Assembly: GCA_964035575.1 (NCBI GenBank)
Contig: OZ037844.1
Span: 434,001 to 498,000, forward strand
DNA length: 64,000 nt
Direction: 5' to 3'
DNA from: Rhynchopus sp. YZ270_cl-10
Taxonomy: Eukaryota
Shown: positions 5,087 to 58,592 of the stretch, one piece after another
Layout: each line of letters starts with the position of its first letter
How positions within the stretch are numbered: position 1 is the stretch's first letter
Translations under genes and position numbers: made by a program
The notes under the pieces: generated by a model
The model's database searches: none
Seen by the model: the letters and a program-made list of their open reading frames with translations, nothing else
Told to the model about the DNA's origin: nothing

Positions 5087-5947
5087 GGTTTTTGAAGATG
5101 TTGATATTCAATGTTGTTTATTTTATGCTGTTTCTTTTTGTGGAGGTTGTGAGGTGAGTGGTGGGTGTCCCTGAACTGCCTCTCACCCCTGACAAGCATA
5201 CAGCCACAGTGGAAACGGGTGGTGTGGAAGTCTCCCTCCTGAGGGTGTTGGGAATCCATCTGCCTTGAGACGAGGAGGGTGAGGGAGGGAATCTTTGTTT
5301 GTGTCCTTAATTTTTTTCAGCTTTTTCCCCCCCTTTTTTACGATAACCTACAGTGCAGGCAGGTTTAGTGCATGCACTTGGCCCTCTCTTCCCCCCTTCT
5401 GACCACATCTCCTTGCTCCACATGGGGTTCCACACCACTCAAGGCAGTGGGGGACAGTTTCCCTGTTCTTCTTCCAAGGGTATTACACAGACAGCACACA
5501 TCTCCTTCTCTCCTTTCATTGTACAATAGAACGAGTAGTTGAAACGTGCTTAAAGAGCTAAGAAGAGGGATACGTGGTTCCAATATTATGCTTATTTTCA
5601 TCCAGTCCACCTGATTTGTACCCCTGAGGACCGCACAATCAAAACCCACCCCTGTTTCCCTATATTCCCCCACAACCCGCCAAAGTCACTCTTTTTCAAG
5701 GAGAGGGAAGGAGGGTGTGTTCCGCGCACCATTCTCCTTGGGACACCTTCGACCCCGCTTTGTTCGTTTGTAGGTCGCTTTCTGGGATGACGAGATCATA
5801 CAGTGCTCACTGGGGGGTGTCGAATACAAGAACGGGTAAGAAAGCCCTGCCCCGACTTAGGGGTATACCTAAGGGAGTGAGGGGGAGGGGAGTGGACAAG
5901 AATGGAGCTTTTTGTTCTGGTTGTTGTTTGGTCGACGCTCCCTGGCA

Positions 5948-8105: not shown

Positions 8106-8139
<34 letters not shown>

Positions 8140-12643: not shown

Positions 12644-12749
12644 TGTTTGTTGTGTGTTTTTCTTGTGTAAGAACGGCGTCCTTTTTTGCAGTAATGGGGA
12701 TTGGGACGAGGGATCTTGAATCTGCAAGAAACGTAAAAATTATTCGCAA

Positions 12750-14663
12750 ACAAATATTTCCCCGCACCGTGCTCGAGGAGAACCTGCACCGCACCTGCGT
12801 GTTGTTCCTGCCTCGCATAGTACAACGCAGTCAGACGCAAATAAATTCTGTCATTCACGTCTACCTTGTTCAAGTCCACACGATAGCGCACAGTCTCGGT
12901 GTGCCGCAACAATAAGATGAGTTCTGATATTGTTGTTGTCCACCACACACACGTACGCACCTGCTTTGACCTTGGGTATGATTTCATCGATATCCGGTAC
13001 CTCAACCAACTGCCCCTGCATCAATGAGCACCTCCACCACATCTGCGTGCTTCTGTGCTACTGCGTGGTGTAGTGAAGTGGAGCCGCTATTATTTGACTG
13101 ATTCACGTCCACCTCAGGCATGCACAGAAGAGTACGCACAGTCTCGGTCTGTCCATTGGCAGCCGCAAGGCTGAGACATGTCTCCCCAAAGTTGTCTGTG
13201 ACACACACTCCCGCACCTGCTTTGAGCAGCGCCTCGACATCACGGAGCTTCCCACACTGGCTAGCCACGTGGAGTGGCGAACATCCGCGACCTTCATTGT
13301 ACTTAACCTCAATGTCTGCCCCTGCATCAATGAGCAGCTCCACCACATCTGAGTGCTTCTGTGCTACTGCGTGGTGCAGTGAAGTGGAGCCGCTATTATT
13401 TGATTGATTCACATCCACCTCAGGCATGCACAGAAGACTACGCACAGTCTCGGTGTGTCCATAGGCAACCGCAAGGCTGAGACATGTGAGTCCTTTGTCG
13501 TCTGTGACACACACTCCTGCGCCTGCTTTGACCAACATCTTCACAACCTGGAGATTCCCACACTCGCTCGCCTTGAGGAGTGGCGAACGTCCGTCGTTGC
13601 ATTTTGCCTCGATGTCTGCCCCTGCATCAATGAGCACCTCCATCACATCTGCACTTGCGTTCTCAACTGCTGCGAGCAACGCGGTGTAGCCATCCTCAGC
13701 CTTGTGACTCAGGTCGACCTGCGGCAAACCAACAAGATAGCGCACAGTCTCGGTGTGTCCAAATGCTGCAGCAATCATAAGACTTGTCGATCCTATATTA
13801 TGTGTGGCACGCACTTCCGCACCTGCTTCCACCAACATCTTCACAATTGGCTGACTCCCATTCTTGCAAGCATACAGCAGAGGTGTATAAGAGTCCTCAT
13901 CCCTTGTCTCGATGTCTGCACCTGCATCAATCAGGACGTTCACCACATCTGCGTGGTTTTGACCTACTGCACAGAACAACGCAGACCAGTCGTCAACACC
14001 TTTGTGATTCACATCCACATCCTTCAAACCCACAAGATAACGCACAGTCTCGGTGTGTCCATGATATGCTGCAAAGATAAGACATGTGTTTCCGAAGTTG
14101 CACGTACCACACACTCCCGCACCAGCTGCCACCAAATTTTTCATAACTGCGAGTGCTCCTGAACGACAAGCCAAGTGCAGAGGCGAACGTCCCATGTCGT
14201 CCCTTGCCTCGATGTCTGCCCCTGCATCAATGAGCACCTGACACACTGCAGAGTCCGCCCACATGGCTGGACAGTCACGGTTTTTGATGTCCTCCTGCCC
14301 GTGTGGGACACACGCAACGTTGCTGCAGACTGACTTCCAATGCTGCAAGAGGACCTCCGTGCACGCAGTGTGGTCTGCGTGGACGCACTCATTCAGCAGC
14401 ATCCCGAAGCCCATCTGCGTTGTCTCAACATACGGAAGAAGCAGTGCGAGGCATTCATCGTGGTTCCCTCTGCATGCCTCGTGCACAGCATCGAAGGCAA
14501 CCGTTTTGCTGTCTGTGTCTGGGCTGAGCTTCTCAAGTCCCACCCGCACGGCAGTCGTGTCGCCGTTCCTGGCAGCCTCCACCAAGACCTCGTCTGCAGA
14601 AAGCTTTCTTCTCTTTGGTGCCTTCTCGTCAGGTGTGCTGTCTGCGTGTTGCTCCTTCGACAT
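12750..14663 (-). CDS. Ankyrin-repeat protein copy 3 (553-aa ORF 13002-14663; fifth module degenerate at ~12750-13010)
   Basis: Four intact triplet modules, then an out-of-frame remnant HTETVRY..LNKVDVN..TALYYARQEQH..LLEHGA. Confidence 0.85.
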
Positions 14664-35543: not shown

Positions 35544-35608
35544 CAGCAGCACACTCACCACATGCATGAGGCAGCCTGACTCTAGCAATGTCGCCACACA
35601 CCCTGCCT

Positions 35609-41278: not shown

Positions 41279-42616
41279 TCATTCTTCTGCACCGCGCTTG
41301 AGGAGAACCTGCTCCACATCTGTATGTTGTTTCTTCCTCGCCCAGTACAACGCAGTGTGGCCCAACAAATTTCTGTAGTTCACATTCACCTTGTTCAAGC
41401 CCACAAGATATCGCACAGTCTCGGTGTGTCCTTTTTGTGCCGCAAGGGTAAGACATGTGTTTCCGGGGTTGTTGTCTGCCACACTCACGTCCGCACCGGC
41501 GTTCACCAACATCTTCACAATGTCGAGTTCCCCACCCGCACAAGCATAGTGAAGAGGTGTGCATCCCCGTCCATTGTAGAAATGTACATTCTTTGCATCG
41601 ATGTCTGCACCTGCATCAATGAGCAGCTGCACCACATCTAGGTGCTGCCGCATCGCTGCGTGGTGCAGTGGAGTGTTGCCGCTGTTATCTGACTGATTCA
41701 CGTCCACCTCAGGCATGCACAGAAGAGTACGCACAGTCTCGGTGTGTCCAAAGGTGGCTGCAAGCATAAGGCATGTGAGTCCTTTGTCGTCTGTGACACA
41801 CACTCCCGCACCTGCTCTGGCCAACACCTCCACAACACGGAGATGCCCAAAGCTGCTCGCCGCGAGGAGTGGCGAACCGTCCTCATTCACCTCGATATCA
41901 GCCCCTGCATCAATGAGCACCTCCACCACATCTGCATGGTTTCGAAGCAGATTTCGACGACGTGCGACACGGAACAACGCGTGTTCAGCTTTGTGATTCA
42001 CGTCCACATCCTTCAAGCCCACAAGATAGCGCACAATCTCGGTGTGTCCAAAATAGGCAGCAAGATTAAGACATGTGCAGTCACACACGGTGACACGTAC
42101 TGCCGCACCTGCTTCCACCAACATCTTCACAACTGCGAGTGCTCCTGAACAGCAAGACCAGTGCAGAGGCGGACGTCCCATGCCGTCTTCTATCTCGATG
42201 TCTGCCCCTGCATCAATGAGCACCTGACACACTGCAGGGTCCTTCCACATGGCTGGACAGGCACGGTGCTCCTGCCCGTGTGGGACATACGCATCTTTGC
42301 TGCAGACTGACTTCCAATGCTGCAAGAGGACCTCCGTGCACGCAGTGTGGTCTGCGTGGATGCACTCACTCAGCAGCATCCCGAAGCCCATCTGCGTTGT
42401 CTCAACATACGGAAGAAGCAGTGCGAGGCATTCATCGTGGTTCCCTCTGCATGCCTCGTGCACAGCATCGAAGGCAACCGTTTTGCTGTCTGTGTCTGGG
42501 CTGAGCTTCTTAAGTCCCGCCCGCACGGCAGTCGTGTCGCCGTTCCTGGCAGCCTTCACCAAGACCGTGTGCGCGCGTTGTTTCGACGAGGTGAGACCCA
42601 TGGAGTAAATGGTCAA
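41279..42616 (-). CDS. Ankyrin-repeat protein copy 4 (3 modules; different N-terminus, likely start MGLTSS at 42601)
   Basis: Family core present; the NLS-like leader is replaced. Confidence 0.88.
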   Translation of the reverse strand: MTIYSMGLTSSKQRAHTVLVKAARNGDTTAVRAGLKKLSPDTDSKTVAFDAVHEACRGNHDECLALLLPYVETTQMGFGMLLSECIHADHTACTEVLLQHWKSVCSKDAYVPHGQEHRACPAMWKDPAVCQVLIDAGADIEIEDGMGRPPLHWSCCSGALAVVKMLVEAGAAVRVTVCDCTCLNLAAYFGHTEIVRYLVGLKDVDVNHKAEHALFRVARRRNLLRNHADVVEVLIDAGADIEVNEDGSPLLAASSFGHLRVVEVLARAGAGVCVTDDKGLTCLMLAATFGHTETVRTLLCMPEVDVNQSDNSGNTPLHHAAMRQHLDVVQLLIDAGADIDAKNVHFYNGRGCTPLHYACAGGELDIVKMLVNAGADVSVADNNPGNTCLTLAAQKGHTETVRYLVGLNKVNVNYRNLLGHTALYWARKKQHTDVEQVLLKRGAEE

Positions 42617-43351
42617 GCTGACGTGAGTGTTGGAGGTGAGGCAGGTCAGATGTCAGATAAAAACATAAGCCAGTCTTGTTCCTGATCACTACTTGGTATT
42701 GGTGCTCCTGAAAACCCCATTTTGCGTGCCACTCTTTTTTTGTTCTATCCAGAGTAAACCCGGAACCGTGTCCCGGTTGGTGCCGTTTTTCACATCTAGG
42801 ACGTGCGGGTTGCCGTTAAACGGAGGTCACCTCCCCGTTGTTGCTACACAGGGTATACAGACAGCACACCTCAGGGTGTGGCAGCATCGTTTAGGACACT
42901 GGCCTGACTTCAATAGTGGAAACCCTAAAATAAAAGGTCCCCGCGATCAGCTGTTATGCTGGTCGGTGTGTTCGCTAGTAGTTTTCTTTTCAAAATGTTT
43001 CTCTTTCTTTGTCTCGTCTATTTTTCCTGCATTTTTTATTCTCTTCTTTGTACTTTCTTTTGTTTTGGTTGTTAGATACACTCAATCGCCTATCGAGTTT
43101 CTGTGAATAGCACGGAACCCCTTTTATGTGTATCCATGGAAAGACAGTATCATATGTGCTACCGGGGGCAAAAAAAAAAAATTGAAAAAGGTGTCGAGAA
43201 AAAACAAACAACGGACGCACCGTGGTTTCTCTGCGACTGATATTTTGTGGGAGGGGGAGAATAACACATTATGAATAAGCTGCGTTCCCCACTATCGTTT
43301 CCGCTGCGCTCTCACTACGTCACTCCATTCGGTTTTCTCTTGCGACGTAAT

Positions 43352-44357
43352 TAATCATGGGGGGTGAAACATCTTTTCAGATGATGTGGAATCTTTTCAT
43401 CTTTTTCACATCTTGTCACGTCGTGAAAAAAGGAAAAAAAAAAAAAAAAAAAAAAGTGCTCGCACACGATCTGCAGCAGGTCTACTCAATATTTTTTCAG
43501 ATGAGTCACCACCACGGTTCGCACGGATCGCGATCCGTCAATTGCGGTACTTTTCCGGGAAAAACAAAAAAAAAAAAAAGTGGGGTGCGCACGGGGGTCG
43601 CGCTACGCGCCTACCGACTACCGTGGATTTTTGACGATTTTGCTCGGTACGTTTTTCCTTACTAAAACCAGAATCTCATATTTCATAGTAAGAGTATTTC
43701 GGAGTGTTTTTGCACACACACATGTGACCCCACCGTGGAGAGCAATCGGCTCGCGCAATCAAAAGAAAGCAGAGAAAAGGGAAAAAGAAAAAAGACAAAA
43801 GTTGGGTACCGTGCGCCTGCGGCGCTACTGTGTTCCCACTCGATACACCACAATTTCATCTGAAGTTAGGTTTTCAAACCTGAAAATGACCCTTGTTTAC
43901 GAGTATGGGTTCATATTTTGCAAAAATTTAAGTCAATAAAATTTTGTCCATTTTTCCAAAATGACCCCATCACTTTCTGCAATCGCACCGAATCGGACGA
44001 TGCGATCGACAAAAACGCCCAAAAACGGACCCCACACCCCCTTTTTGTGCGTGATTTTGGTCAAAATCACGTGATCTGGGAACATGCTTGTTTTTGACCA
44101 AAGAAAAAAAATTTCTTTGCCCTAAATCGGGCGTGGTAGGTGATACAATGGCCCAAAAAATCTAAAGAAAATCTCAGATTGACTTTTTCTGGAAAAAAAT
44201 TTTCAAGTCAAAATTTCAGCCAAAAATACGGTCATTTTCACCTGATTTTTTTTTTTTTTTTTTTTCACGACGTTTTTTTTTTCACGATCAAGAAACGAAG
44301 TTGTGAGAGATTTCCGAAATTTTAGATCGTGATAAGATCTTTTACCCCCCATGACTA
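43352..44357. mobile_element. ~1-kb non-autonomous TIR element
   Basis: TAATCATGGGGGGTGAAACATCTT / AAGATCTTTTACCCCCCATGACTA; subterminal CGTCGTGAAAAA / TTTTTCACGACG. No clear TSD. Confidence 0.7.
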
Positions 44358-44522
44358 ATAAGCTTCAAAGATGAGCAGTTCGGTGCTCAACACAAAATGG
44401 TGCGAAAACATGTTTCCAGCAAGCAGAGGAGAAAGTCTTGATGCATAAAATATAGGTACTGTGATGCCGTCGAAATATCCTCTGAAGACTGTTCACCAAA
44501 TATGGTCGACGCGTCCACAGCA

Positions 44523-46166
44523 TCATTCTTTTGCACCGTGATCGAGGAGAACGTGCACCACATCCATATGTTTATGCTGTTTCTGCCTCGCATGTTGCAA
44601 CGCTGTGTGGCCGAACAAATTCTTCTGATTCACGTCCACCTCCGGCAAGCCCGCAAGATAGCGCACAGTCTCGGTGTATCCATAACTCACTGCAAGGATA
44701 AGACACGTCCGTCCGTGGTCGTCCTGCACACTCACGTCCGCTCCTGCTTTGACCAACATCTTCACAGTGTCGAGTTCCCCACGCACAGTACAAGCACAGT
44801 GAAGAGCTCCTGCATCGATGTCTGCCCCTGCATCAATGAGCACCTGCACCACATCTGAGTGCTTATGTGCCACTGCGCGGTGCAGTGGAGTGAAGCCTTG
44901 CGTATTTGACTGATTCACGTCCACCCCCTTAACTCCAACAAGATAGCGCACAATCTGAGTGCGTCCATATTTAGCAGCAACATTGAGGCATGATACCCTC
45001 TTGTCGTCCACCGCACACACGTCCGCACCAGCAGCCAACAACATCTGCACAATTTCGAGTTCTGGTTCCTCACAAGCACAATGAAGAGGTGTGCTTCCTC
45101 TATCATCCTTTGCATCGATGTCTGCCCCTGCATCAATGAGCAACTTCGACACATCTGAGTGCTTCTGTAACACTGCGTGGTGCAGTGAAGAGCCGCTCCT
45201 GTTATTTGACTGATTCACATCCACCTCAGGCATGCACAGAAGAGCACGCACAGTCTTGGTGTGTCCGTAATGCGCCGCAAGGGAAAGACATGTGTCCGCT
45301 CTGTTGTCTGCGACACACACCCCCGCACCTGCTCTGACCAACGTCTTCACAATCGGGAGATGCCCAAACTCGCTCGCCACGAGGAGTGGCGAAAGTCCGT
45401 GCTTATCCTTCACCTCGATGTCTGCACCTGCATCAATGAGCACCTCCACCACATCGGGATGGCCTTCCTCAGCTGCATGGAGCAACGCAGTGTAGCCATC
45501 GGTATCCTTGTGGTTCACATCCACCTTGTTCAAGCCCACAAGATAGCGCACAGTCTCGGTGTGTCCAGATCCTGCAGCCAGACGAAGACGCGTGCTTCCT
45601 TCCTTTGCTGTGGCACACACTCCCGCACCTGATTCGACCAACATCTTCACAACATCGAGTGCTCCTGAACAGCAAGACCAGTGCAGAGGCGAATGTCCCA
45701 TGTCATCCTTTGTCTCGATGTCTGCCCCTGCATCAATGAGCACCTGACACACTGCAGGGTCCTCCCACATGGCTGGACAGGGTCGGTCTTTCTTGTCCTC
45801 CTGCCCGTGTGGGACAAACGCAACGTTGCTGCAGACTGACTTCCAATGCTGCAAGAGGACCTCCGTGCACGCAGTGTGGTCTGCGTGGATGCACTCACTC
45901 AGCAGCATCCCGAAGCCCATCTGCGTTGTCTCAACATACGGAAGAAGCAGTGCGAGGCATTCATCGTGGTCCCCTCTGCATGCCTCGTGCACAGCATCGA
46001 AGGCAACCGTTTCGCTGTCTGTGTCTGGGCTGAGCTTCTCAAGTCCCACCCGCACGGCAGTCGTGTCGCCGTTCCTGGCAGCCTCCACCAAGACCTCATC
46101 TGCAGAAAGTGTTGTGCTGTGTGGTGTCTTCTCGTCAGGTGTGCTGTCTGCGTGTCGCTTCGACAT
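44523..46166 (-). CDS. Ankyrin-repeat protein copy 5 (547 aa, 4 modules; PHSTTL replaces PKRRKL)
   Basis: Ankyrin consensus; intact ORF. Confidence 0.92.
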   Translation of the reverse strand: MSKRHADSTPDEKTPHSTTLSADEVLVEAARNGDTTAVRVGLEKLSPDTDSETVAFDAVHEACRGDHDECLALLLPYVETTQMGFGMLLSECIHADHTACTEVLLQHWKSVCSNVAFVPHGQEDKKDRPCPAMWEDPAVCQVLIDAGADIETKDDMGHSPLHWSCCSGALDVVKMLVESGAGVCATAKEGSTRLRLAAGSGHTETVRYLVGLNKVDVNHKDTDGYTALLHAAEEGHPDVVEVLIDAGADIEVKDKHGLSPLLVASEFGHLPIVKTLVRAGAGVCVADNRADTCLSLAAHYGHTKTVRALLCMPEVDVNQSNNRSGSSLHHAVLQKHSDVSKLLIDAGADIDAKDDRGSTPLHCACEEPELEIVQMLLAAGADVCAVDDKRVSCLNVAAKYGRTQIVRYLVGVKGVDVNQSNTQGFTPLHRAVAHKHSDVVQVLIDAGADIDAGALHCACTVRGELDTVKMLVKAGADVSVQDDHGRTCLILAVSYGYTETVRYLAGLPEVDVNQKNLFGHTALQHARQKQHKHMDVVHVLLDHGAKE

Positions 46167-46510
46167 GGTTTGTGAAGATGTTGATATTCAATGTTGTGTC
46201 TTTTATGCTGTTTCTTTTTGTGGAGGTTGTGAGGTGAGTGTGGGTGTCCCTGAACTGCCTCCCACCCCAGACAAGCACAGCCACAGTGGAAACGGGGTGG
46301 TGTGGAAGTCTCCCTCCTGAGGGTGGTGGTGGGTATCTATCTTGCTTGAGACGAGGGGGTGAGGGAGGGGGTCTGTAAGATAAAAACGTGTTTCAGGTCA
46401 TTGCACAGTAGTATTCAAAAGGGTAGACATTATCAATCATTCTCCTATTCATGGCGTGGATCTTGTGTACCTTCCTCTGAAGACTGTTCATAGTCGACGC
46501 GTCCACAGCA

Positions 46511-47887
46511 TCATTCTTCTGCACCGTGCTTGAGGAGAACCTGCTCCACATCTGTATGTTGTTTCTGCCTCGCATCGTGCAACGCAGTGTGGCCCAACAA
46601 ATTCCTCCGGTTCACATCCACCTTGTTCAAGCCCGCAAGATAGCGCACAGTCTCAGTGTGTCCAACGTCAGCCGCAAGGCTGAGACATGTGCCCCCAGTT
46701 TCGTCCGCCGCACTCACATCCGCACCTGCTTCGACTAACATCTGCACATTTTCGAGTTCCCCAACCTCACAAGCATAGTGAAGAGGTGTCCTTCCGTGTG
46801 TATTCTCCCATGTAGGTCCCGTGCAATTCTTTCCCTCGATGTCTGCCCCTGCATCAATGAGCACCTGCACCACATCTGGGTGCTTCTGTGACACTGCGTG
46901 GTGCAGTGAAGTAGTGCCGCTGGTATTTGACTGATTCACATCCACCTCAGGCATGCACAGAAGAGTACGCACAGTCTCAGTGTGATTATAAGTAGTCGCA
47001 AGGGTAAGACATGTCTCCTCAAGGTTATCTGTGACACACATTCCCGCACCTGCCTTGAGCAACACCTCCACAACACGGAGATGCCCAAACCTGCTCGCCA
47101 CGAGGAGTGGCGAACGTCCTTGCTCATCCTTCACCTCGATGTCTGCACCTGCATCAATGAGCACCTCCACCACACCTGCATGGTTTTGAAGTACTGCACA
47201 GAACAACGCAGACAAGTCCTCAGCTTCGTGATTCACGTCCACATCCTTCAAACGCAACAGATAGCGCACAGTCTCGGTGTGTCCATAGCATGCCGCAAAC
47301 ATAAGACATGTGTTTCCGAAGTTGCAGGTAACACGCACATCTGCACCTGCCTTGACCAACATCTTCACAACATCGAGTGCTCCTGAACAGCAAGACCAGT
47401 GCAGAGGTGAACGTCCGTCCTCATCCTTTGTCTCGATGTCTGCCCCTGCATCAATGAGCACCTGACACACTGCAGGGTCCTCCCACATGGCTGGACAGGG
47501 TCGCCTATATATGACCTCCTGCCCGTGTGGGACACACGCATCGTTGCTGCAGACTGACTTCCAATGCTGCAAGAGGACCTCCGTGCACGCAGTGTGGTCT
47601 GCGTGGATGCACTCACTCAGCAGCATCCCGAAGCCCATCTGCGTTGTCTCAACATACGGAAGAAGCAGTGCGAGGCATTCATCGTGGTTCCCTCTGCATG
47701 CCTCGTGCACAGCATCGAAGGAAACTGTTTTGCTGTCTGTGTCTGGGCTGAGCTTCTCAAGTCCCGCCCGCACGGCAGTCGTGTCGCCGTTCCTGGCAGC
47801 CTCCACCAAGACCGAGTCTGCAGAAAGCTTTCTTCTCTTTGGTGCCTTCTCGTCAGGTGTGCTGTCTGCGTGTTGCTCCTTCGACAT
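46511..47887 (-). CDS. Ankyrin-repeat protein copy 6 (458 aa, 3 modules)
   Basis: Ankyrin consensus; intact ORF. Confidence 0.92.
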   Translation of the reverse strand: MSKEQHADSTPDEKAPKRRKLSADSVLVEAARNGDTTAVRAGLEKLSPDTDSKTVSFDAVHEACRGNHDECLALLLPYVETTQMGFGMLLSECIHADHTACTEVLLQHWKSVCSNDACVPHGQEVIYRRPCPAMWEDPAVCQVLIDAGADIETKDEDGRSPLHWSCCSGALDVVKMLVKAGADVRVTCNFGNTCLMFAACYGHTETVRYLLRLKDVDVNHEAEDLSALFCAVLQNHAGVVEVLIDAGADIEVKDEQGRSPLLVASRFGHLRVVEVLLKAGAGMCVTDNLEETCLTLATTYNHTETVRTLLCMPEVDVNQSNTSGTTSLHHAVSQKHPDVVQVLIDAGADIEGKNCTGPTWENTHGRTPLHYACEVGELENVQMLVEAGADVSAADETGGTCLSLAADVGHTETVRYLAGLNKVDVNRRNLLGHTALHDARQKQHTDVEQVLLKHGAEE

Positions 47888-48737
47888 GGTTTGTGAAGAT
47901 GTTGATATTCAATGTTGTGTCATTTATGCTGTTTCTTTTTGTGGAGGTTGTGAGGTGAGTGGTGGGTGTCCCTGCACTGCCTTCCCACCCCAGACAAGCA
48001 CAGCCACAGTGGAAACGGGGTGGTGTGGAAGTCCCCCTCCTGAGGGTGGTGGTGGGAATCTATCTGCCTTGAGACGAGGAGGTGAGGGAGGGGGTCTGTA
48101 AGAGAAACACATCATCCAGTCTTGTTCATGTTGGTAATGAAATCTTAACGCACAGGCTCTGTTGATTCTAAAAAACGGGGGGTAAAAGATCGCGAATGGA
48201 AAAATGGGGAAGAGGTTGAAATGTTAAAACGCTTCCTCACCCCAGATCACACTAAAATACAAAGGTTTGGCTTTCAATGGTCTTCTGAAGATGAAAAAGC
48301 CTTCTTCTTTCTTCTTCTTTTTGTCGGTTTTTTTATTTTTTGAAGAATATAAAAACTTATCTCGAAATGGTCAGTTCAAGATCGAACAGAGAGAATGAAG
48401 CAACCCGAAACCCTCCAAGGCCAAATGGTCTAATGTTGTATTGACATAGTGTGGGGGAGAAGTGAGGAGGGCGAGAATCGTTCACGAAGACTAAAAGATT
48501 TCCTAAGATATATCACAGTGTCCCCCATGTCCCCAAATATCTGCGTACCCCAACCCTCCATCAACAAAAGAGCGCATGGAGAGGAAGGCAATACGGCTGA
48601 AGAACTTGACTTTGAAAGAGAAGTTGTGACAGAGAAACGCCTCCCCATGCATCTTTACCTGTTAACGTCCAACCCCGTACAGTCGAGAATGGTCGTCTGA
48701 AGACTGTTCACCAAATGTAGTCGACGCGTCCACAGCG

Positions 48738-50996
48738 TCATTCTTCTGCACCGTGCTTGAGGAGAACCTGCTCCACATCTGTTTGTTGTTCCTGCCTCGC
48801 CTCGTGCAACGCAGTGTGGCCAAACAAATCCCTGTGGTTCACATCCACCTTGTTCAAGCCCACAAGATAGCGCACAGTCTCAGTGTGTCCATAACCCGCT
48901 GCAAAGATAAGACATGTGCGTCCGTGATCGTCTGCCTCACACACGCCCGCACCTGCTTTGACCAACATCCTCACAATGTCGAGCTCCCCACCCTCACAAG
49001 CACAGTGAAGAGGTGTGCTTCCTCTATCATCCTTTGCATCGATGTCTGCCCCTGCATCAATTAGCACCTCCACCACATCTGAGTGCTTCTGTGACACTGC
49101 GCGGTGCAGTGAAGCGCGGCCGCTATTATTTGAGTGATTCACATCCACCTCAGGCATGCACAGAAGAGTACGAACAGTCTCAGTACATCCTTTGGCAGCC
49201 GCGAGTGTAAGACACGTGTCTCCTTCATAGTCTGTGACACACACGTCCGCACCTGCCCTGACCAACACCTTCACATCCCCCACCTTCCAAACCTCGCTCG
49301 CCACGAGGAGTGGCGAACGTCCTTGGTGTTGCTTCACCTCGATGTCTGCCCCTGCATCAATCAACAGCTCCATCAAACCGTTGCGATGTGCATGTACTCG
49401 CCAAGCTGCATGGAGCAACGCAGTGCAGCCGTCATTATCCTTGTGATCCACGTCCACCTCTGGCAAGCCCACAAGATAGCGCACAGTCTCGGTGTGTCCA
49501 AGATATACCGCAAGGCTGAGACATGTGTCCCCGTGGTTGGCTACCGCACACACGTCCGCACCTGCTTTGATCAACTTCTCCGCAATTTCGAGTTGCCCAC
49601 CCTCACAAGCACAGTGAAAAGGTGTCCTTCCTGTGATAGTGTTGGCCTCAATGTCTGCCCCTGCATCAATGAGTACCTCCACCACAGCTAAGTTCCCCTG
49701 TGTTGCTGCGCAGTGCAGCGAAGTGGAGCCACTGCTATTTGCCTGATTCACGTCCACATCAGGCATGCACAGAAGAGTACGCACAGTCTCGGTGCGTCCA
49801 CAAGCAGAGGCAAGGGTAAGACATGTCTCCCCAAGGTTGTCTGTGACACACACGTCCGCACCTGCTTCGATCAACACCTTCACAACACGGAGGTTCCCAC
49901 ACTTACTCGCCACGAGGAGTGGCGAACGTCCTCGCTTTTCCTTGGCCTCGATGTCTGCCCCTGCATTAATGAGCACCTTCACCACATCTGCATGGTTTTG
50001 CTCAGATACAGCGAGTAACACAGTGGAGCCGTACCTACCGTTGTGATTCACGTCCACCTCCTTCGAGCCAACGAGATAGCGCACAGTCTCGGTGTGTCCA
50101 TGATATGCCGCAAATATAAGACATGTGTGACCAGCGTTGTCCGCGACACACACTCCCGCACCTGCTTCGACCAAGACTTTCACAATTGCTAATTCTCCTG
50201 AACGACAAGCCCAATGCAGAGGCGAACGTCCCATGTCGTTCTTTGCCTCGATGTCTGCCCCTGCAATGAGCAGCTGCACCACACCTGAGCGCTTCTTAAA
50301 CACTGCGCAGTGTAGTGGAGTGTTGCCCCTGTTATCTGACTGATTCACGTCCACCTCAGGCATGCACAGAAGAGTACGCACAGTCTCAGTGTGTCCCTTC
50401 GCAGCCGCATAGAAAAGACAGGTTTTCCCTTTGTTGTCTGTGACACACACTCCTGCACCTGCGTCGACCAACATCTTCACAACATCGAGTGCTCCTGAAC
50501 GACAAGCAAAGTGCAGAGGCGAACGTCCCATGCCGTCCTTTGTCTCGATGTCTGACCCTGCATCAATGAGCACCTGACACACTGCAGGGCCCTCCCACAT
50601 GGCTGGACAAACACGGTTATTGGTGCCCTTGTACCCGTGTGGGACAAACGCAACGTTGCTGCAGACTAACTTCCAATGCTGCAAGAGGACCTCCGTGCAC
50701 GCAGTGTGGTCTGCGTGGACGCACTCACTCAGCAGCATCCCAAAGCCCATCTGCGTTGTCTCAACATACGGAAGAAGCAGTGCGAGGCATTCATCGTGAT
50801 TCCCTCTGCATGCCTCGTGCACAGCATCGAAGGAAACCGTTTCGCTGTCTGTGTCTGGGCTGAGCTTCTCAAGTCCCGCCCGCACGGCAGTCGTGTCGCC
50901 GTTCCTGGCAGCCTCCACCAAGACCTTGTCTGCAGAAAGCTTTCTTCTCTTTGGTGCCTTCTCGTCAGGTGTGCTGTCTGCGTGTCGCTTCGACAT
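48738..50996 (-). CDS. Ankyrin-repeat protein copy 7 (752 aa, 6 modules)
   Basis: Ankyrin consensus; intact ORF. Confidence 0.92.
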   Translation of the reverse strand: MSKRHADSTPDEKAPKRRKLSADKVLVEAARNGDTTAVRAGLEKLSPDTDSETVSFDAVHEACRGNHDECLALLLPYVETTQMGFGMLLSECVHADHTACTEVLLQHWKLVCSNVAFVPHGYKGTNNRVCPAMWEGPAVCQVLIDAGSDIETKDGMGRSPLHFACRSGALDVVKMLVDAGAGVCVTDNKGKTCLFYAAAKGHTETVRTLLCMPEVDVNQSDNRGNTPLHCAVFKKRSGVVQLLIAGADIEAKNDMGRSPLHWACRSGELAIVKVLVEAGAGVCVADNAGHTCLIFAAYHGHTETVRYLVGSKEVDVNHNGRYGSTVLLAVSEQNHADVVKVLINAGADIEAKEKRGRSPLLVASKCGNLRVVKVLIEAGADVCVTDNLGETCLTLASACGRTETVRTLLCMPDVDVNQANSSGSTSLHCAATQGNLAVVEVLIDAGADIEANTITGRTPFHCACEGGQLEIAEKLIKAGADVCAVANHGDTCLSLAVYLGHTETVRYLVGLPEVDVDHKDNDGCTALLHAAWRVHAHRNGLMELLIDAGADIEVKQHQGRSPLLVASEVWKVGDVKVLVRAGADVCVTDYEGDTCLTLAAAKGCTETVRTLLCMPEVDVNHSNNSGRASLHRAVSQKHSDVVEVLIDAGADIDAKDDRGSTPLHCACEGGELDIVRMLVKAGAGVCEADDHGRTCLIFAAGYGHTETVRYLVGLNKVDVNHRDLFGHTALHEARQEQQTDVEQVLLKHGAEE

Positions 50997-51775
50997 GGTT
51001 TGTGAAGATGTTGATATTCAATGTTGTGTCTTTTATGCTGTTTCTTTTTGTGGAGGTTGTGAGGTGAGTGTGGGTGTCCCTGAAGGAATCTATCTGGCTT
51101 GAGACGAGGAGGTGAGGGAGGGGGTCTGTAAGAGAAACACATCATCCAGTCTTGTTCATGTTCGTAATGAAATCTTAACGCACAGGCCTCTGCCGATTCT
51201 AAAAAACGGGGGTAAAAGATCGCGAATGGAAAAATGGGGAAGAGGTTGAAATGTTAAAACGCTTCCTCACCCCAGATCACACTAAAATACAAAGGTTTGG
51301 CTTTCAATGGGGTGGGTTCTTCTTCTGAAGATGAAAAAGCCTTCTTCTTTCTTCTTATTTTTGTCTGTTTTTTTATTTTTTGAAGAATATAAAAACTGAT
51401 CTCGAAATGGTTCAAGATCGAACAGAGAGAATGAAGCAACCCGAAACCCTCCAAGGCCAAACGGTCTAATGTTGTATTGACATAGTGTGAGGGAGAAGTG
51501 AGGAGCACGAGAATCGTCTTCACGAAGACTAAAAGATTTACTAAGATATATCACAGTGTCCCCCATGTCCCCAAATATCTGCGCACCCCAACCCTCCATC
51601 CACAAAAGAGCGCAGGCAGAGGAAGGCAAAACGGCTGAAGAACTTGACTTTGAAAGAGAAGTTGTGACAGAGAAACGCCTCCCCATGCATCTTTACCTGG
51701 TAACGTCCAACCCCGTACAGTCGAGAATGGTCGTCTGAAGACTGTTCACCAAATGTAGTGGACGCGTCCACAGCA

Positions 51776-54037
51776 TCATTCTTCTGCACCGTGCTTGAGG
51801 AGAACCTGCACCACATCTGCATGTTGTTCCTGCCTCGCATGGTGCAACGCAGTGTGGCCCAACAAATCCCTCTGGTTCACATCCACCTTGTTCAAGCCCA
51901 CAAGATAGCGCACAGTCTCAGTGTGTCCATACTGTGCCGCAAACATAAGACATGTGTGTCTGTTGATTGCCTCACACACGTCCGCACCTGCTTTGACCAA
52001 CATCTGCACAATGTCGAGTTCCCCACCCTTGCAAGCACAGTGAAGAGGTGTGCTTCCTCTATCATCCTTTGCATCGATGTCTGCCCCTGCATCAATGAGC
52101 ACCTGCACCACATCTGAGTGCTTCTGTGACACTGCGCGGTGCAGTGAAGCGCGGCCGCTATTATTTGAGTGATTCACATCCACCTCAGGCATGCACAGAA
52201 GAGTTCGCACAGTCTCAGTACATCCTTTGGCAGCCGCGAGTGCAAGACAGGAGGCTCCTTCATTGTCTGTGACACACACGTCCGCACCTGCCCTGACCAA
52301 CACCTTCACATCCCCCACCTTCCAAACCTCGCTCGCCACGAGGAGTGCCGAACGTCCTTGGTGTTCCTTCACCTCGATGTCTGCACCTGCATCAATGAGC
52401 ACCTCCACCACACCTATATGTACTCGCCCAGCTGCGACGAGCACCGCAGTGTTGCCATAGTTATCCTTACGATTCACGTCCACCCCTGGCAAGCCAGCAA
52501 GATAGCGCACCGTCTCGGTGTGTCCAAAATAGGCAGCAATGATGAGACATGTGTCCCCGTGGTTGGCTACCGCACACACGTCCGCACCTGCTTCGACCAA
52601 CATCTTCACAAGACGGAGGTTCCCACATTTACTCGCCACGAGGAGTGGCGAACGTCCTCGCTTTTCCCTCGCCTCGATGTCTGCCCCTGCATTAATGAGC
52701 ACCTTCACCACATCTGCATGGTTTTTCTCAGCTACAACAAGCAACGCAGTGTAGCCGTACCTACCGTTATGATTCACGTCCACTCCCTTCAATCCAACGA
52801 GATAGCGCACAGTCTCGATGTGCCCACAGGTTGCAGCCAGCGTAAGACACGTGCGTCCTTTGTTGTCTGTTACAAGTACATCCGCACCTGCTTCGACCAA
52901 CATCTTCACAATAGGGAGTTCCCCTTTCGAGCAAGATAAGTGTAGAGGTGTACGTGAGTCCTTATCCTTTGCCTCTATGTCTGCCCCTGCATCAATAAGC
53001 ACCTGCACCACATCGGCATGATTTTTACGCACTGCACAACACAACGCAGACAAGTGGTCGTCAGCTTTCTGATTTACTATCTTCGACGCAGTGTGGTCCA
53101 CGTCCACAAGATAGCGCACAGTCTCGGTGTATCCATGATACGCCGCAAATATAAGACATGTGTGACCAGCGTTGTCCGCGACACACACTCCCGCACCTGC
53201 TTCGACCAAGACTTTCACAATTGCTAATTCTCCTAAACGACAAGCCCAGTGTAGAGGCGAACGTCCCATGTCGTTCTTTGCATCGATGTCTGCACCTGCA
53301 TCAATGAGCAGCTGCACCACATTTGAGTGCTGCTGTGAAACTGCGCCGTGCAGTGAAGTGGAGCCACTGGTATTTGCCTGATTCACATCCACCTCAGGCA
53401 TGCACAGAAGAGTACGCACAGTCTCGGTGTGTCCATAGGCGGTTGCTAGGGTACGACATGTCTCCCCAAGGTTGTCTGTGACACACACTCCTGCACCTGC
53501 TTCGACTAACATCTTCACAACATCGAGTGCTCCTGAACGACAAGCACAGTGCAGAGGAGAACGTCCCATGTCGTCCTTTGTCTCGATGTCTGCCCCTGCA
53601 TCAATGAGCACCTGACACACTGCAGGGTCCGCCCACATGGCTGGACAGTCACGGTTATTGATGTCCCTGCGCCCGTGTGGGACAAACGCAACGTTGCTGC
53701 AGACAGACTTCCAATGCTGCAAGAGGACCTCCGTGCACGCAGTGTGGTCTGCGTGGACGCACTCACTCAGCAGAATCCCGAAGCCCATCTGCGTTGTCTC
53801 AACATACGGAAGAAGCAGTGCGAGGCATTCATCGTGGTTCCCTCTGCATGCCTCGTGCACAGCATCGAAGGAAACCGTTTCGCTGTCTGTGTCTGGGCTG
53901 AGCTTCTCAAGTCCCGCCCGCACGGCAGTCGTGTCGCCGTTCCTGGCAGCCTCCACCAAGACCTCGTCTGCAGAAAGCTTTCTTCTCTTTGGTGCCTTCT
54001 CGTCAGGTGTGCTGTCTGCGTGTTGCTCCTTCGACAT
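51776..54037 (-). CDS. Ankyrin-repeat protein copy 8 (753 aa, 6 modules)
   Basis: Ankyrin consensus; intact ORF. Confidence 0.92.
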   Translation of the reverse strand: MSKEQHADSTPDEKAPKRRKLSADEVLVEAARNGDTTAVRAGLEKLSPDTDSETVSFDAVHEACRGNHDECLALLLPYVETTQMGFGILLSECVHADHTACTEVLLQHWKSVCSNVAFVPHGRRDINNRDCPAMWADPAVCQVLIDAGADIETKDDMGRSPLHCACRSGALDVVKMLVEAGAGVCVTDNLGETCRTLATAYGHTETVRTLLCMPEVDVNQANTSGSTSLHGAVSQQHSNVVQLLIDAGADIDAKNDMGRSPLHWACRLGELAIVKVLVEAGAGVCVADNAGHTCLIFAAYHGYTETVRYLVDVDHTASKIVNQKADDHLSALCCAVRKNHADVVQVLIDAGADIEAKDKDSRTPLHLSCSKGELPIVKMLVEAGADVLVTDNKGRTCLTLAATCGHIETVRYLVGLKGVDVNHNGRYGYTALLVVAEKNHADVVKVLINAGADIEAREKRGRSPLLVASKCGNLRLVKMLVEAGADVCAVANHGDTCLIIAAYFGHTETVRYLAGLPGVDVNRKDNYGNTAVLVAAGRVHIGVVEVLIDAGADIEVKEHQGRSALLVASEVWKVGDVKVLVRAGADVCVTDNEGASCLALAAAKGCTETVRTLLCMPEVDVNHSNNSGRASLHRAVSQKHSDVVQVLIDAGADIDAKDDRGSTPLHCACKGGELDIVQMLVKAGADVCEAINRHTCLMFAAQYGHTETVRYLVGLNKVDVNQRDLLGHTALHHARQEQHADVVQVLLKHGAEE

Positions 54038-54628
54038 GGTTTGTGAAGATGTTGATATTCAATGTTGTGTCTTTTATGCTGTTTCTTTTTGTGGAGGTTG
54101 TGAGGTGAGTGTGGGTGTCCCTGAAGGAATCTATCTGGCTTGAGACGAGGAGGTGAGGGAGGGGTCTGTAAGAAAAAAACATCATCCAGTCTTGTTCATG
54201 TTCATAATGAAATATTAACGCACAAGCTCTGCCGATTCTAAAAAACGGGGGTAAAAGATCGCGAATGGAAAAATGGGGAAGAGGTTGAAAGAAAAAATGT
54301 TAAAACGCTTCCTCACCCCAGATCACACTAAAATACAAAGGTTTGGCTTTCGATGGGGTGGGTTCTTCTTCTGACGATGAAAAAGCCTTCTTCTTTCTTC
54401 TTCTTTTCGTCTGTTTTTTTATTTTTGAAGAATATAAAAACTTATCTCGAAATGGTCAGTTCAAGATCGAACAGAGAGAATGAAGCAACCCGAAACCCTC
54501 CAAGGCCAAATGGTCTAATGTTGTATTGACATAGTGTGGGGGAGAAGTGAGGAGGGCGAGAATCGTCTTCACAAAGACTAAAAGATTTCCTAGACTGTTC
54601 ACCAAATGTGGTCGACGCGTCCACAGCA

Positions 54629-56277
54629 TCATTCTTCTGCACCGTGCTTGAGGAGAACCTGCTCCACATCTGCACGTTGTTCCTGCCTCGCATCGTGCAA
54701 CGCAGTGTGGCCAAACAAATCCCTGTGGTTCACATCCACCTTGTTCAAGCCCACAAGATAGCGCACAGTCTCAGTGTGTCCATAACCCGCTGCAAAGATA
54801 AGACATGTGCGTCCGTGATCGTCTGCCTCACACACGCCCGCACCTGCTTTGACCAACATCTTCACAATGTCGAGCTCCCCACCCTCACAAGCCCAGTGAA
54901 GAGGTGTGCTTCCTCTATCATCCTTTGCATCGATGTCTGCCCCTGCATCAATTAGCACCTCCACCACATCTGAGTGCTTCTGTGACACTGCGCGGTGCAG
55001 TGAAGCGCGGCCGCTATTATTTGAGTGATTCACATCCACCTCAGGCATGCACAGAAGAGTACGCACAGTCTCGGTGTGTCCACAATAAGCTGCAATAGTA
55101 AGACATGTGTTACCTTCATTGTCTGTGACACACACGTCCGCACCTGCCCTGACCAACACCTTCACATCCCCCACCTTCCAAAACTCGCTCGCCACGAGGA
55201 GTGCCGAACATCCTCGGTTGGCTCCCTTCACCTCGATGTCTGCCCCTGCAGCAATGAGCACCTCCAAACCACACCTATATGCACTCGCTCAGCTGCGACG
55301 AGCACCGCAGTGTTGCCATCGTTATCCTTACGATTCACGTCCACCCCTGGCAAGCCAGCAAGATAGCGCACAGTCTCAGTGTGCGCAAAAGCAGCCGCAT
55401 AGCTGAGACATGTATCCCCGCGGTTGTCTACTGCACACACGTCTGCACCTGCTTTGAGCAACACCTTCGCAATTTCGAGTTTTCCATTATGACAAGCACA
55501 ATGAAGAGGTGTGATTCGTCTCATTGTCTCAGCCTCGATGTCAGCCCCTGCAGCTATGAGTACCTCCACCACAGCTAAGATGTCCTGTGTCGCTGCGCAG
55601 TGCAGTGAAGTTGAGCCGCTGTTATTTGACTGATTCACGTCCACCTTAGGCATGCACAGAAGAGCGCGCACAGTCTCGGTGTGTCCATGATATGCTCCAA
55701 ACATAAGACCAGTGATACCAGCATTGTCTGTGACACACACTCCCGCACCTGCTTCGACCAACATCTTCACAACATCGAGTGCTCCTGAACGACAAGCAAA
55801 GTGCAGAGGCGAACGTCCGTAGTCATCTTTTGTCTCGGTGTCTGCCCCTGCATCAATGAGCACCTGACACACTGCAGGGTCCTCCCACATGGCTGGACAG
55901 GCACGGTGCTCCTGCCCGTGTGGGACAAACGCAACGTTGCTGCAGATTGACTTCCAATGCTGCAAGAGGACCTCCGTGCACGCAGTGTGGTCTGCGTGGA
56001 TGCACTCACTCAGCAGAATCCCGAAGCCCATCTGCGTTGTCTCAACATACGGAAGAAGCAGTGCGAGGCATTCATCGTGGTTCCCTCTGCATGCCTCGTG
56101 CACAGCATCGAAGGCAACCGTTTTGCTGTCTGTGTCTGGGCTGAGCTTCTCAAGTCCCGCCCGCACGGCAGTCGTGTCGCCGTTCCTGGCAGCCTCCACC
56201 AAGACCTTGTCTGCAGAAAGCTTTCTTCTCTTTGGTGCCTTCTCGTCAGGTGTGCTGTCTGCGTGTCGCTTCGACAT
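54629..56277 (-). pseudogene. Ankyrin-repeat family copy 9 (4 modules; single +2 frameshift near 55266)
   Basis: CCTCCAAACCACACCT here versus CCTCCACCACACCT in copy 8. Could be an assembly error. Confidence 0.8.
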
Positions 56278-56945
56278 GGTTTGTGAAGATGTTGATATTC
56301 AATGTTGTGTCTTTTATGCTGTTTCTATTTGTGGAGGTTGTGAGGTGAGTGGTGGGTGTCCCTGCACTGCCTTCCCACCCCTGACAAGCATAGCCACAGT
56401 GGAAACGGGTGGTTGTGGAAGTTTCCCTCCTGAGGGTGGTGGTGGGAATCCATCTGCCTTGAGACGAGGAGGTGGTCTGCAAGATAAAAACATCATTCAG
56501 GTCATTGCACAGTACTATTCATAAGGATAGACATGCAATTCTCCTTATCATGTTGGGTGAGTGACAATGTTCTGTGTTGATTGGTGGGGAAACGCACATA
56601 AAATCAAGAAAGTCTTTTTTTTCTTCATTACATGGGCGGGAAGAGTTTTTGGGCTCGGTTCGTATATTCAGAATCAGAATTTCAGAGGAGCAAAAACTGA
56701 AAGCGAGTGGACAACACTGGCCTAATTCATTGGTGATGACTGTTCTGGGAGGTTGCCACGTTGCAAATATGAAGGTGGCATCTTGCTGTTTGCATCCTTA
56801 TCAGAGTCGCATGGAAGTGCTAGTACCCCATAATAGGCTTTCTGGACCAATGCGCATTAGGCAGGCTTGCTTGTACCTTCGACTGAGCTGGTGTCAACCT
56901 TCCTCTGAAGTCTGTTCACCAAATGTGGTCGACGCGTCCACAGCA

Positions 56946-58592
56946 TCATTCTTCTGCACCGTGCTTGAGGAGAACCTGCTCCACATCTGTATGTTGTTTC
57001 TTCCTCGCATAGTGCAACGCAGTGTGGCCCAACAAATTTCTGTGGTTTACATCCACCTCCCGCAAGCCCACAAGATAGCGCACAGTCTCGGTGTGTCCAT
57101 GATCTGCTGCAATGATAAGACATGTGTTACTCTTGTTGTCTACCTCACACACGTCCGCTCCTGCTTTGACCAACATCAGCACAATTTCGAGTTCTGGTTC
57201 CGCACAAGCCCAGTGAAGAGGTGTGCATCCACCTTCCTTTGCATCGATGTCTGCCCCTGCATCAATGAGAACCTCCACCACATCTGAGTGCTTCTGTGAA
57301 ACTGCGCGGTGCAGTGAAGTGGAGCCGCTATTATTTGAGTGATTCACGTCCACCTCAGGCATGCACAGAAGAGCACGCACAGTCTCAGTGTGTCCAAAAT
57401 GTGCTGCAAGCATAAGGCATGTGTCTCCTTCGTCGTCTGTGACACACACGTCCGCACCTGCTCTGACCAACACCTCCACAACTCCCAGTTTCCTCGCCAA
57501 GAGGAGTGGCGAACGACCTACGTTATCCTTGACCTCGATGTCTGCCCCTGCATCAATGAGCACCTCCATTGTACCTGGATGTGTTAGCTCAGCTGCGTAG
57601 ATCACCACAGTGTTGCCATACTTATCCACGTGACTCATGTCCACATCCGGCAAGGACACAAGAAAACGTACCGTCTCAGTGTGTCCGTATACCGCAGCCA
57701 GAACGAGACAAGCGTATCCGTATTTGTCTATGGCGCGCACCTCTGCACCTGCTTCCACCAACATCTTCACAATAGGGAGATTGCCTTTCTCGCAAGATAG
57801 TACGAGAGGTGTACGTGAGTCCTTATCTCTTGTCTCAATATCAGCCCCTGCATCAATAAGTACCTTCACCAGATCGGCGTGATTTTGACGTACTGCACAG
57901 AACAACGCAGACAGGTGGCCATCAGATTTGTGATTCATTATCTTCGACGCAGTGTCGTCCACGTCCACAAGATATCGCACAGTCTCGGAGTATCCATGAT
58001 ATGCCGCACACATAAGACATGTGTTTCCGTAGTTGTCTGTGACACACACTCCCGCACCTGCTTCGACCAACATCTTCACAACATCGAGTGCTCCTGAACG
58101 ACAAGACCAGTGCAGAGGGGAACGTCCCATTTCATCCTTTGTCTCGATGTCTGCCCCTGCATCAATGAACACCTGACACACTGCAGGGTCCGCCCACATG
58201 GCTGGACAGGGTCGAGGTTTCGTGTTGCTCCCGTGTGGGACAAACGCATCGTTGCTGCAGAGTGACTTCCAATGCTGCAAGAGGACCTCCGTGCACGCAG
58301 TGTGGTCTGCGTGGATGCACTCACTCAGCAGCATCCCGAAGCCCATCTGCGTTGTCTCAACATACGGAAGAAGCAGTGCGAGGCATTCATCGTGGTTCCC
58401 TCTGCATGCCTCGTGCACAGCATCGAAGGCAACCGTTTTGCTGTCTGTGTCTGGGCTGAGCTTCTCAAGTCCCGCCCGCACGGCAGTCGTGTCGCCGTTC
58501 CTGGCAGCCTCCACCAAGACCGAGTTTGCAGAAAGTGTTGTGCTGTTTGGTGCCTTCTCGTCAGGTGTGCTGTCTGCGTGTCGCTTCGACAT
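56946..58592 (-). CDS. Ankyrin-repeat protein copy 10 (548 aa, 4 modules; PNSTTL replaces PKRRKL)
   Basis: Ankyrin consensus; intact ORF. Confidence 0.92.
   Translation of the reverse strand: MSKRHADSTPDEKAPNSTTLSANSVLVEAARNGDTTAVRAGLEKLSPDTDSKTVAFDAVHEACRGNHDECLALLLPYVETTQMGFGMLLSECIHADHTACTEVLLQHWKSLCSNDAFVPHGSNTKPRPCPAMWADPAVCQVFIDAGADIETKDEMGRSPLHWSCRSGALDVVKMLVEAGAGVCVTDNYGNTCLMCAAYHGYSETVRYLVDVDDTASKIMNHKSDGHLSALFCAVRQNHADLVKVLIDAGADIETRDKDSRTPLVLSCEKGNLPIVKMLVEAGAEVRAIDKYGYACLVLAAVYGHTETVRFLVSLPDVDMSHVDKYGNTVVIYAAELTHPGTMEVLIDAGADIEVKDNVGRSPLLLARKLGVVEVLVRAGADVCVTDDEGDTCLMLAAHFGHTETVRALLCMPEVDVNHSNNSGSTSLHRAVSQKHSDVVEVLIDAGADIDAKEGGCTPLHWACAEPELEIVLMLVKAGADVCEVDNKSNTCLIIAADHGHTETVRYLVGLREVDVNHRNLLGHTALHYARKKQHTDVEQVLLKHGAEE

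Follow-up and report, generated by a model that had tools for sequence, protein, structure and literature searches.

The 21.1 proteins of Giardia are a large protist family of ankyrin-repeat (ANK) proteins. In Symbiodinium, ANK has been described as the second-largest family (PMC4083563), and Bodo saltans virus is reported to carry directional tandem ANK arrays, with 148 copies of 4-17 repeats, referred to as a 'genomic accordion' (PMC5871332). For the NOD-like receptor (NLR) sensors of fungi, e.g. the HNWD proteins of Podospora, the cited accounts describe highly internally conserved WD40, ANK and TPR repeats with a few hypervariable positions per repeat under diversifying selection, with recombination inside single genes as well as between paralogues adding, removing and shuffling repeats, which also undergo concerted evolution (PMC2873952; PMC13449251). 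In designed ankyrin repeat proteins (DARPins), the randomized positions are described as forming the paratope (PMC8683736). Here we analyzed a stretch of 64,000 nucleotides (nt) from Rhynchopus sp. YZ270_cl-10 (assembly GCA_964035575.1, contig OZ037844.1, positions 434,001 to 498,000 of the forward strand), hereafter the window, in which ten co-oriented, intronless ANK paralogues were found, seven at 41279-58592 and three at 3748-14663. We interpret these genes as members of a lineage-specific, ANK-only family with a three-repeat cassette grammar, variation in cassette number, mosaic genes and a 5' block apparently kept identical by concerted evolution. The proteins of this tandem family are probably binders, likely intracellular and mostly nuclear, in which the contact face is predicted to diversify while the fold is kept.

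The ten paralogues had been proposed in a preliminary description of the sequence, and seven of them were recovered as intact open reading frames (ORFs). The N-terminal motif AARNGD has ten minus-strand occurrences, which start at 58508, 56193, 53950, 50912, 47800, 46082, 42553, 14576, 7222 and 5002. A C-terminal cap (C-cap) motif occurs nine times on the same strand. One gene plan is common to the copies, i.e. an N-terminal block (N-block) of about 150 amino acids (aa), strictly ordered triplets of three repeat types (A, B and C) and the C-cap, with the last C repeat of the series doubling as the cap. The ordered triplets, also part of the preliminary description, were recovered by segmentation, which gave 37 modules in strict A-B-C order in the nine readable genes (4, 4, 6, 6, 3, 4, 3, 4 and 3), as well as by Tandem Repeats Finder, which independently identified a period of 297-306 nt within the genes and a match of 66-85% between successive modules. 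Copies differ in length by whole 300-nt modules.

The family extends well beyond the window. A search with the N-block (E <= 0.001) returned 275 proteins of 251-802 aa and another 28 of 803-2290 aa, so that it is shared by at least 303 proteins in public data. The matches are ENA records on contigs of 0.2-2.7 Mb; among the best 120 of the 275, 37 are situated on the window's own contig of 584,333 bases and 46 on a contig of 2,712,987 bases. Repeats in these relatives were classed by hidden Markov models (HMMs) built from the A, B and C repeats of the window. The cyclic order A>B>C>A held for 1171 out of 1213 steps from one repeat to the next in the best 120 of the 275 proteins and for 582 out of 600 such steps in the 28 long proteins, which gives 1753 out of 1813 transitions for both sets combined. 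Exactly the form C?(ABC)n was found in 86 of the best 120 relatives, with 1, 2, 3, 4, 5 and 6 modules in 2, 8, 33, 33, 8 and 2 of these, respectively. Their lengths cluster near 450, 552, 652 and 752 aa, and long members of the family have up to about 10-11 modules. According to precomputed Pfam assignments, every one of the 28 long proteins and of the best 120 of the 275 contains ANK families, and other accessions are seen in a few members as well. A subset on other contigs (P0001-P0014 and P0241) carries an 'ACC' prefix ahead of the regular ABC series. P0241 has two N-block motifs, and in P0003 and P0014 the motif is preceded by 263-276 residues, a pattern for which either duplication of the N-block or fusion of neighboring genes in the gene models may account. 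No description of this family was found in the literature on kinetoplastid ANK families, ANK arrays of intronless protists and concerted evolution of ANK genes.

Three members of the window were scanned with Pfam, including the clan Ank models PF00023, PF12796 and PF13637, and were found to match ANK families alone, with Ank_2 at 226-402 bits (cut-off 27.3) and Ank at 212-380 bits. Residues 27-111 of the N-block match Ank_2 at an E value of 4.3e-6 and 27.6 bits, barely over the cut-off, which suggests that the N-block is itself a degenerate ANK array; in the ESM Atlas, a search with the N-block gave generic ANK clusters only. An AlphaFold model of the 458-aa copy, made from an alignment of 27 sequences (predicted local distance difference test score, pLDDT, 85.9; predicted template modelling score, pTM, 0.78), contains 25 helices, namely 12 helix pairs and one unpaired helix. 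A disordered leader (residues 1-20) is followed by three helix pairs (23-113), a disordered loop (118-131), the unpaired helix (138-146) and nine regular ANK repeats. The top Foldseek matches of the model were an extended DARPin (6mol_A, template modelling (TM) score 0.72, 34% identity), ankyrin-1 (8cs9_A) and AnkB (4rlv), with TM scores of 0.72-0.74. Going by the model, each protein is predicted to be one continuous ANK solenoid, built of a basic leader of about 20 aa, the degenerate N-block, a variable loop and (A-B-C)n. Sequence entropy within the repeats is highest at positions 4, 5, 7, 12, 15 and 16 in our own numbering, which in the model are located in the turn before helix 1 and in the second half of helix 1. 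Variation is thus concentrated at beta-turn and helix-1 positions, i.e. the canonical ANK binding face, as previously claimed.

The evolution of these positions was analyzed at the codon level. The face set was fixed before the codon tests and comprises 18 codons per module, i.e. the six positions per repeat (2, 3, 5, 13, 14 and 33) that Binz et al. are said to have randomized in DARPins in 2003. Counting by the method of Nei and Gojobori (NG86) over all pairs was set aside in favor of independent nearest pairs, as face codons were saturated in the former (proportions of synonymous and non-synonymous differences, pS and pN, about 0.55-0.6). For 14 independent nearest module pairs, the ratio of non-synonymous to synonymous change (dN/dS, omega) was 1.07 on the face (bootstrap 0.74-1.56) and 0.49 on the scaffold (0.37-0.66). 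Maximum-likelihood (ML) codon models were fitted with our own code to 36 modules of 99 codons, for which IQ-TREE supplied the topology. When all codons shared a single synonymous rate, omega was 2.68 on the face compared with 0.62 elsewhere (likelihood-ratio test (LRT) statistic against a face value of 1, 144), and model M2a was preferred over M1a (LRT 202), with 18 sites at P > 0.8, 13 of them in the a priori face set and five outside. Restriction to four well-supported clades, which avoids the deep, saturated branches, gave 2.06 compared with 0.59 (LRT 70), again with one synonymous rate. When modules were simulated with a true face omega of 1, the estimates were 0.85-1.13 and the LRT at most 3 in all 18 replicates, nine of which were unshuffled while nine had their genealogies shuffled per repeat segment; hence the code is unbiased, and recombination of this kind does not create the signal. 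A ratio above that of the scaffold was found on the face in every analysis (1.07, 1.3-1.4 or 2.1-2.7 compared with 0.4-0.7), and the excess of amino-acid change at face codons over the scaffold is robust, so a uniform dN/dS lacking any excess at the binding face, which would have spoken against the preliminary description, does not apply. Change on the binding face proceeds at the neutral rate or faster.

For the N-block, synonymous divergence (dS) pooled over all nine readable copies amounts to 0.048, compared with 0.472 in the first, 0.266 in the penultimate and 0.220 in the last module. Several 15-codon windows of the N-block have a pS of 0, and its dN/dS is about 1.3. In the DNA alignment, some 250 nt of the N-block are 96-100% identical in all ten copies (e.g. 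58260..58510, minus strand, in the copy at 56946..58592). Identity among copies is about 80% over some 200 nt preceding the ATG, and the final 150 nt of the genes are conserved too, along with about 50 nt past the stop; outside these limits identity collapses. An N-block lacking synonymous divergence points to concerted evolution and not to constraint on the protein, and gene conversion is the likely cause of the near-identity. At third codon positions, the GC content of the core reaches 0.71, as opposed to 0.525 for the modules, a rise of the kind that GC-biased gene conversion would cause. An almost invariant N-terminal block shared by all copies, as had been reported, is present, while its conservation by selection on the protein is not upheld.

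The modules, on the other hand, appear to have been exchanged between genes. Almost every module is closest to its positional counterpart in another gene, not to its neighbor in the same gene, at nucleotide distances of mostly 0.09-0.30. Divergence is also incongruent along gene pairs, e.g. a dS that drops from 0.286 for the first module to 0.008 for the last between the copies at 54629..56277 and 48738..50996, and 0.057 in the penultimate module and 0.126 in the last between the latter copy and the one at 51776..54037. Positional homology across genes combined with such incongruence indicates that the genes are mosaics. Unequal crossing-over in a 300-nt register would change the number of modules, and gene conversion, for which the near-identical 5' block and the conserved 3' cap would provide starting points, would homogenize the ends and shuffle the modules between them. 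Selection, or at least absent constraint, would then let the residues of the concave face shift binding specificity. The birth-and-death evolution previously put forward fits the variable number of modules and the presence of three damaged copies out of ten, while concerted evolution of the N-block lies outside a pure birth-and-death process.

The leader ahead of the N-block occurs in different versions. It contains KRRK in seven of the ten window copies, NSTT or HSTT in two (58520-58535 and 46095-46110, respectively) and reads MGLTSSK in one. KRRK (AAG AGA AGA AAG) and NSTT/HSTT (AAC/CAC AGC ACA ACA) are separated by five changes in 12 nt, with no silent changes nearby. Leaders of the N-x-T-T type recur among the best 120 of the 275 relatives, where 14 were found by regular expression, in addition to NGTT and NNTT forms, and this recurrence suggests two maintained leader classes. 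The basic leader suggests nuclear proteins; with the KRRK sequence, most members would be directed to the nucleus, whereas variants of the NSTT type would go elsewhere. By-eye inspection of the N-termini revealed no signal peptide or membrane segment, and no NACHT, NB-ARC or effector domain was found in the three Pfam-scanned members, the best 120 of the 275 relatives or the 28 long members. Given that no signalling, secretion or membrane domain was seen, the notion of a 'receptor or decoy' in the preliminary description is unsupported, nothing in the Pfam result or the inspected N-termini being indicative of a receptor. A diversifying repertoire of intracellular binders is a plausible reading of the same sequences. 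The basic leader of most copies could also belong to exported effectors, i.e. NLS-bearing ANK proteins (NLS, nuclear-localization signal) that a parasite or symbiont delivers to the nucleus of its host, a use made of ANK arrays by viruses and intracellular bacteria according to the cited account (PMC5871332). This is very improbable, as no export signal is visible by eye in the N-termini, the genes sit among ordinary cellular genes, and a scan of viral contigs gave one generic match of 28 residues and no close relative.

Several observations weigh against the interpretation of the family as mostly nuclear binders with a diversifying face and a homogenized 5' block. Most importantly, face codons have a synonymous rate of their own that is 1.5-2.2 times the scaffold rate, and a separate face rate improves the fit (2 delta lnL about 25 for the whole tree and 6.9 within clades). 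With this rate, omega on the face falls to 1.29 (p 0.09), 1.36 (p 0.03) and 1.40 (p 0.03), which together with the value of 1.07 obtained by counting leaves room for neutral drift of the face. An omega above 1 is consequently supported relative to the gene-wide silent rate and marginal relative to the silent rate of the face codons themselves. The raised silent rate is one that linked diversity kept against conversion, multi-nucleotide conversion patches or a local mutation bias would each produce. Furthermore, scaffold omega is high (0.4-0.7 across analyses), the codon models were run with our own code on a fixed topology with fixed relative branch lengths, the simulations cover one kind of recombination only, three of the ten window copies are damaged, and KRRK was read as a nuclear-localization signal by eye. 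The very low dS of the N-block could, lastly, reflect a function at the nucleotide level. N-blocks on other contigs have protein identities of 74-94%, which makes a universal constraint on the DNA unlikely, and local concerted evolution appears to be the better reading.

Most of these points also bear on a tentative alternative to which we assign a rather low probability, namely an expansion under relaxed constraint. Dispensable ANK genes would here amplify passively, with fold residues constrained, the surface drifting and copies decaying, and the apparent 'library' design would be that of any ANK repeat under weak selection. An NG86 interval that includes 1, the modest values obtained with two synonymous rates, the high scaffold omega, the damaged copies, the lack of any domain besides ANK and a region rich in repeats and duplications are all in line with such an expansion. 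It is contradicted by the face values of 2.1-2.7 relative to the gene-wide silent rate (LRT 70-144), which neutral simulations did not reach (at most 1.13), and by a site-by-site test, in which the non-synonymous rate beta was below the synonymous rate alpha at 23 of the 99 codons. The A-B-C grammar kept in nearly all of the 1813 transitions (best 120 of the 275 relatives and the 28 long members) likewise speaks against passive amplification. Moreover, seven of the ten window copies have intact ORFs (440-753 aa) at a module dS of 0.2-0.5, whereas unconstrained change usually brings stops. In simulations of 5-10% random point change, the repeat part stayed free of stops in 0.5-24% of trials, depending on length, and the intact ORFs, set against nearest modules that differ mostly by 9-30%, argue against pure decay of the family, although repair by conversion from intact donors would be another way of keeping ORFs open.

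The seven minus-strand copies at 41279-58592 comprise, from high to low coordinates, first an intact gene at 56946..58592 (548 aa; Ank_2 E 4.9e-85) that consists of the N-block and four A-B-C modules, the last C being the cap, and that carries the NSTT leader in place of the KRRK found in others. The next copy, at 54629..56277, has four modules; relative to the closest paralogous repeat, its reading frame is interrupted near 55267 by two inserted nt, which fall within the C repeat of module 2. It is followed by two intact six-module genes, at 51776..54037 (753 aa; Ank_2 E 6.5e-123) and 48738..50996 (752 aa; Tandem Repeats Finder period 300, 5.4 copies), and by three further intact genes, namely the three-module copy at 46511..47887 that was modelled with AlphaFold (458 aa), a four-module copy with the HSTT leader in place of KRRK at 44523..46166 (547 aa) and a three-module copy with the leader MGLTSSK... 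at 41279..42601 (440 aa from ATG, 445 from TTG). The remaining three, also on the minus strand, are a damaged copy at 12760..14663, an intact three-module gene at 5948..7306 (452 aa) and a three-module pseudogene at 3748..5089, with at least three frameshifts and two in-frame stops. In the first of these, an ORF at 13002-14663 (553 aa) comprises four modules and stops before the cap, and remnants of a decayed fifth module and the cap are found in other frames at about 12760-13000. The length classes and the steps of about 100 aa in the preliminary description thus stand. A third copy with five modules, the last one broken, was also listed there, although the third copy (54629-56277) has four modules and a break in module 2; the wording instead matches the ORF at 13002-14663.

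Contigs of four runs from two studies, which behave as DNA assemblies of about 100x depth with intergenic DNA covered too, match unique intergenic stretches of the array (e.g. 56425-56868 and 44345-44655) with 0-3 differences at about 100x. Together with the distinct module sequences and flanks of every copy, this makes it extremely improbable that the array or its near-identical 5' blocks arose by mis-assembly or collapse of repeats. Such an artefact would be favored by the highly repeated nature of the family, by short-read contigs of the four runs ending inside genes, and by the 2-nt insertion of the second copy, as no contig of the four runs spans 55264-55341 (at 99% likeness). The same runs showed that the intergenic segment at 43404-44004, between the copies at 41279-42601 and 44523-46166, has a summed contig depth of about 160,000-590,000 in the four runs, compared with about 100-400 for unique single contigs, and is a very high-copy genome repeat with poly-T and poly-A tracts nearby.

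The window has a GC content of about 0.41-0.54, higher where coding, and all long ORFs between 3.7 and 63.6 kb are intron-free and situated on the minus strand. Pfam domains in the neighbors of the ANK genes identify a SIR2 and ZPR1-jelly-roll protein, a potassium-channel-like protein, two protein kinases and a CAP-Gly protein. One of the two kinases, encoded directly upstream of the ANK array at 60981-63278 (minus strand), is joined in a single gene with a PARP catalytic domain (Pkinase E 4.7e-37, PARP E 1.4e-18). The SIR2 and ZPR1 jelly-roll fusion is found at 15918-17315 (minus strand), and the sole outside match with the same architecture is 42% identical and comes from a EukProt transcriptome. 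No match of this protein bore a kinetoplastid name, so that a kinetoplastid affiliation found no support, and a dinoflagellate spliced-leader motif gave 0 matches. Three copies of another gene (10163-10900, 11924-12727 and 20400-21107, minus strand), two of them in tandem between ANK copies, have a weak match to PNPOx_N, a pyridoxamine 5'-phosphate oxidase domain (E 1.1e-4, below cut-off). The only long ORF on the plus strand is open-ended (2-1393, 463 aa) and had no Pfam families; by eye it resembles part of a retroelement, with a reverse transcriptase followed by an RNase H-like region. Arrays of one and the same 261-263-nt satellite, 99% identical between copies, are located at 9330-10116 (3.0 copies) and 31107-32156 (4.0 copies), and a perfect (CAGCAT)n microsatellite of 45.8 copies (100% matches) is found at 35274-35548, shortly before the ORF at 35609-36859 on its upstream side. 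Neither Rfam families nor tRNA genes were found when the 64-kb window was scanned for them.

Compared with the protist families mentioned at the outset, the present one is similar in comprising hundreds of lineage-specific ANK genes in a microbial eukaryote whose genes are co-oriented. It differs from those of Symbiodinium and Giardia, as far as their descriptions go, by its single homogenized N-block and its fixed three-repeat grammar. The closest genomic analogue appears to be the ANK arrays of Bodo saltans virus, but these are viral. Directional tandem arrangement, variable repeat number, recent duplications and broken copies are shared with the ANK arrays of giant viruses and poxviruses, as portrayed in the cited account (PMC5871332). 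The present genes are found, unlike viral arrays, in a cellular context with a GC content of about 48% and kinase, sirtuin and channel genes as neighbors, and unlike viral host-range or decoy arrays they have neither PRANC or F-box domains nor fused gene fragments, Pfam identifying ANK only.

DARPin libraries can be regarded as the closest analogue in design. Constant N- and C-terminal capping units flank a variable number of internal consensus-like repeats in DARPins, according to the cited source (PMC8683736), and correspondingly the N-block and the cap are shared here, while the number of modules is 3-6 in the window and 1-6 in 86 of the best 120 relatives. The top Foldseek match is an extended DARPin. 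Variation also peaks at the same beta-turn and helix-1 positions, going by the numbering reportedly used for DARPins. As opposed to DARPins, the family is natural and germline-encoded, has three fixed, ordered types of internal repeat and an N-block of about 150 aa that includes a leader and a disordered loop, and varies in the scaffold too (omega 0.4-0.7), with five of the 18 M2a sites outside the randomized set. It is doubtful, and in our view unlikely, that the likeness goes as far as a natural, germline counterpart of a DARPin library, i.e. several hundred mostly nuclear ANK binders that would recognize viruses, mobile elements or symbionts by an adaptive face and shuffled cassettes, with no signalling domain.

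By mechanism, the repeat sensors of fungal NLRs seem to be the nearest system. Repeats that form a superstructure, a few variable positions on the binding surface, repeat shuffling and concerted evolution are common to both, as far as the sensors are characterized in the cited work. The present family lacks, unlike fungal NLRs, a NACHT or NB-ARC NTPase and an effector domain, the exchanged unit is a three-repeat A-B-C super-repeat, and the homogenized part is the 5' block, not the repeat array. Repeats within one gene are 66-85% alike in DNA, compared with an internal repeat conservation of 80-100% given for the fungal sensors in the cited texts. Without NTPase and effector domains and without high internal conservation, the window family is not a member of the fungal NLR group. 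If the face is merely neutral, the locus would be a useful but ordinary case of mosaic concerted evolution within a multigene family. If the face is diversifying and the genes are expressed, it would represent a natural case of engineer-style specificity, in which the caps stay constant, the cassettes differ in number and the contact residues vary, and in which gene conversion would both preserve the handles for recombination and shuffle the cassettes. Hundreds of natural combinations of framework and paratope would then be at hand for studies of ANK folding and binding, and an ANK-only repertoire without an NTPase would join the diversity-enhancing repeat systems, i.e. fungal NLRs and the variable lymphocyte receptors (VLRs) of lampreys.

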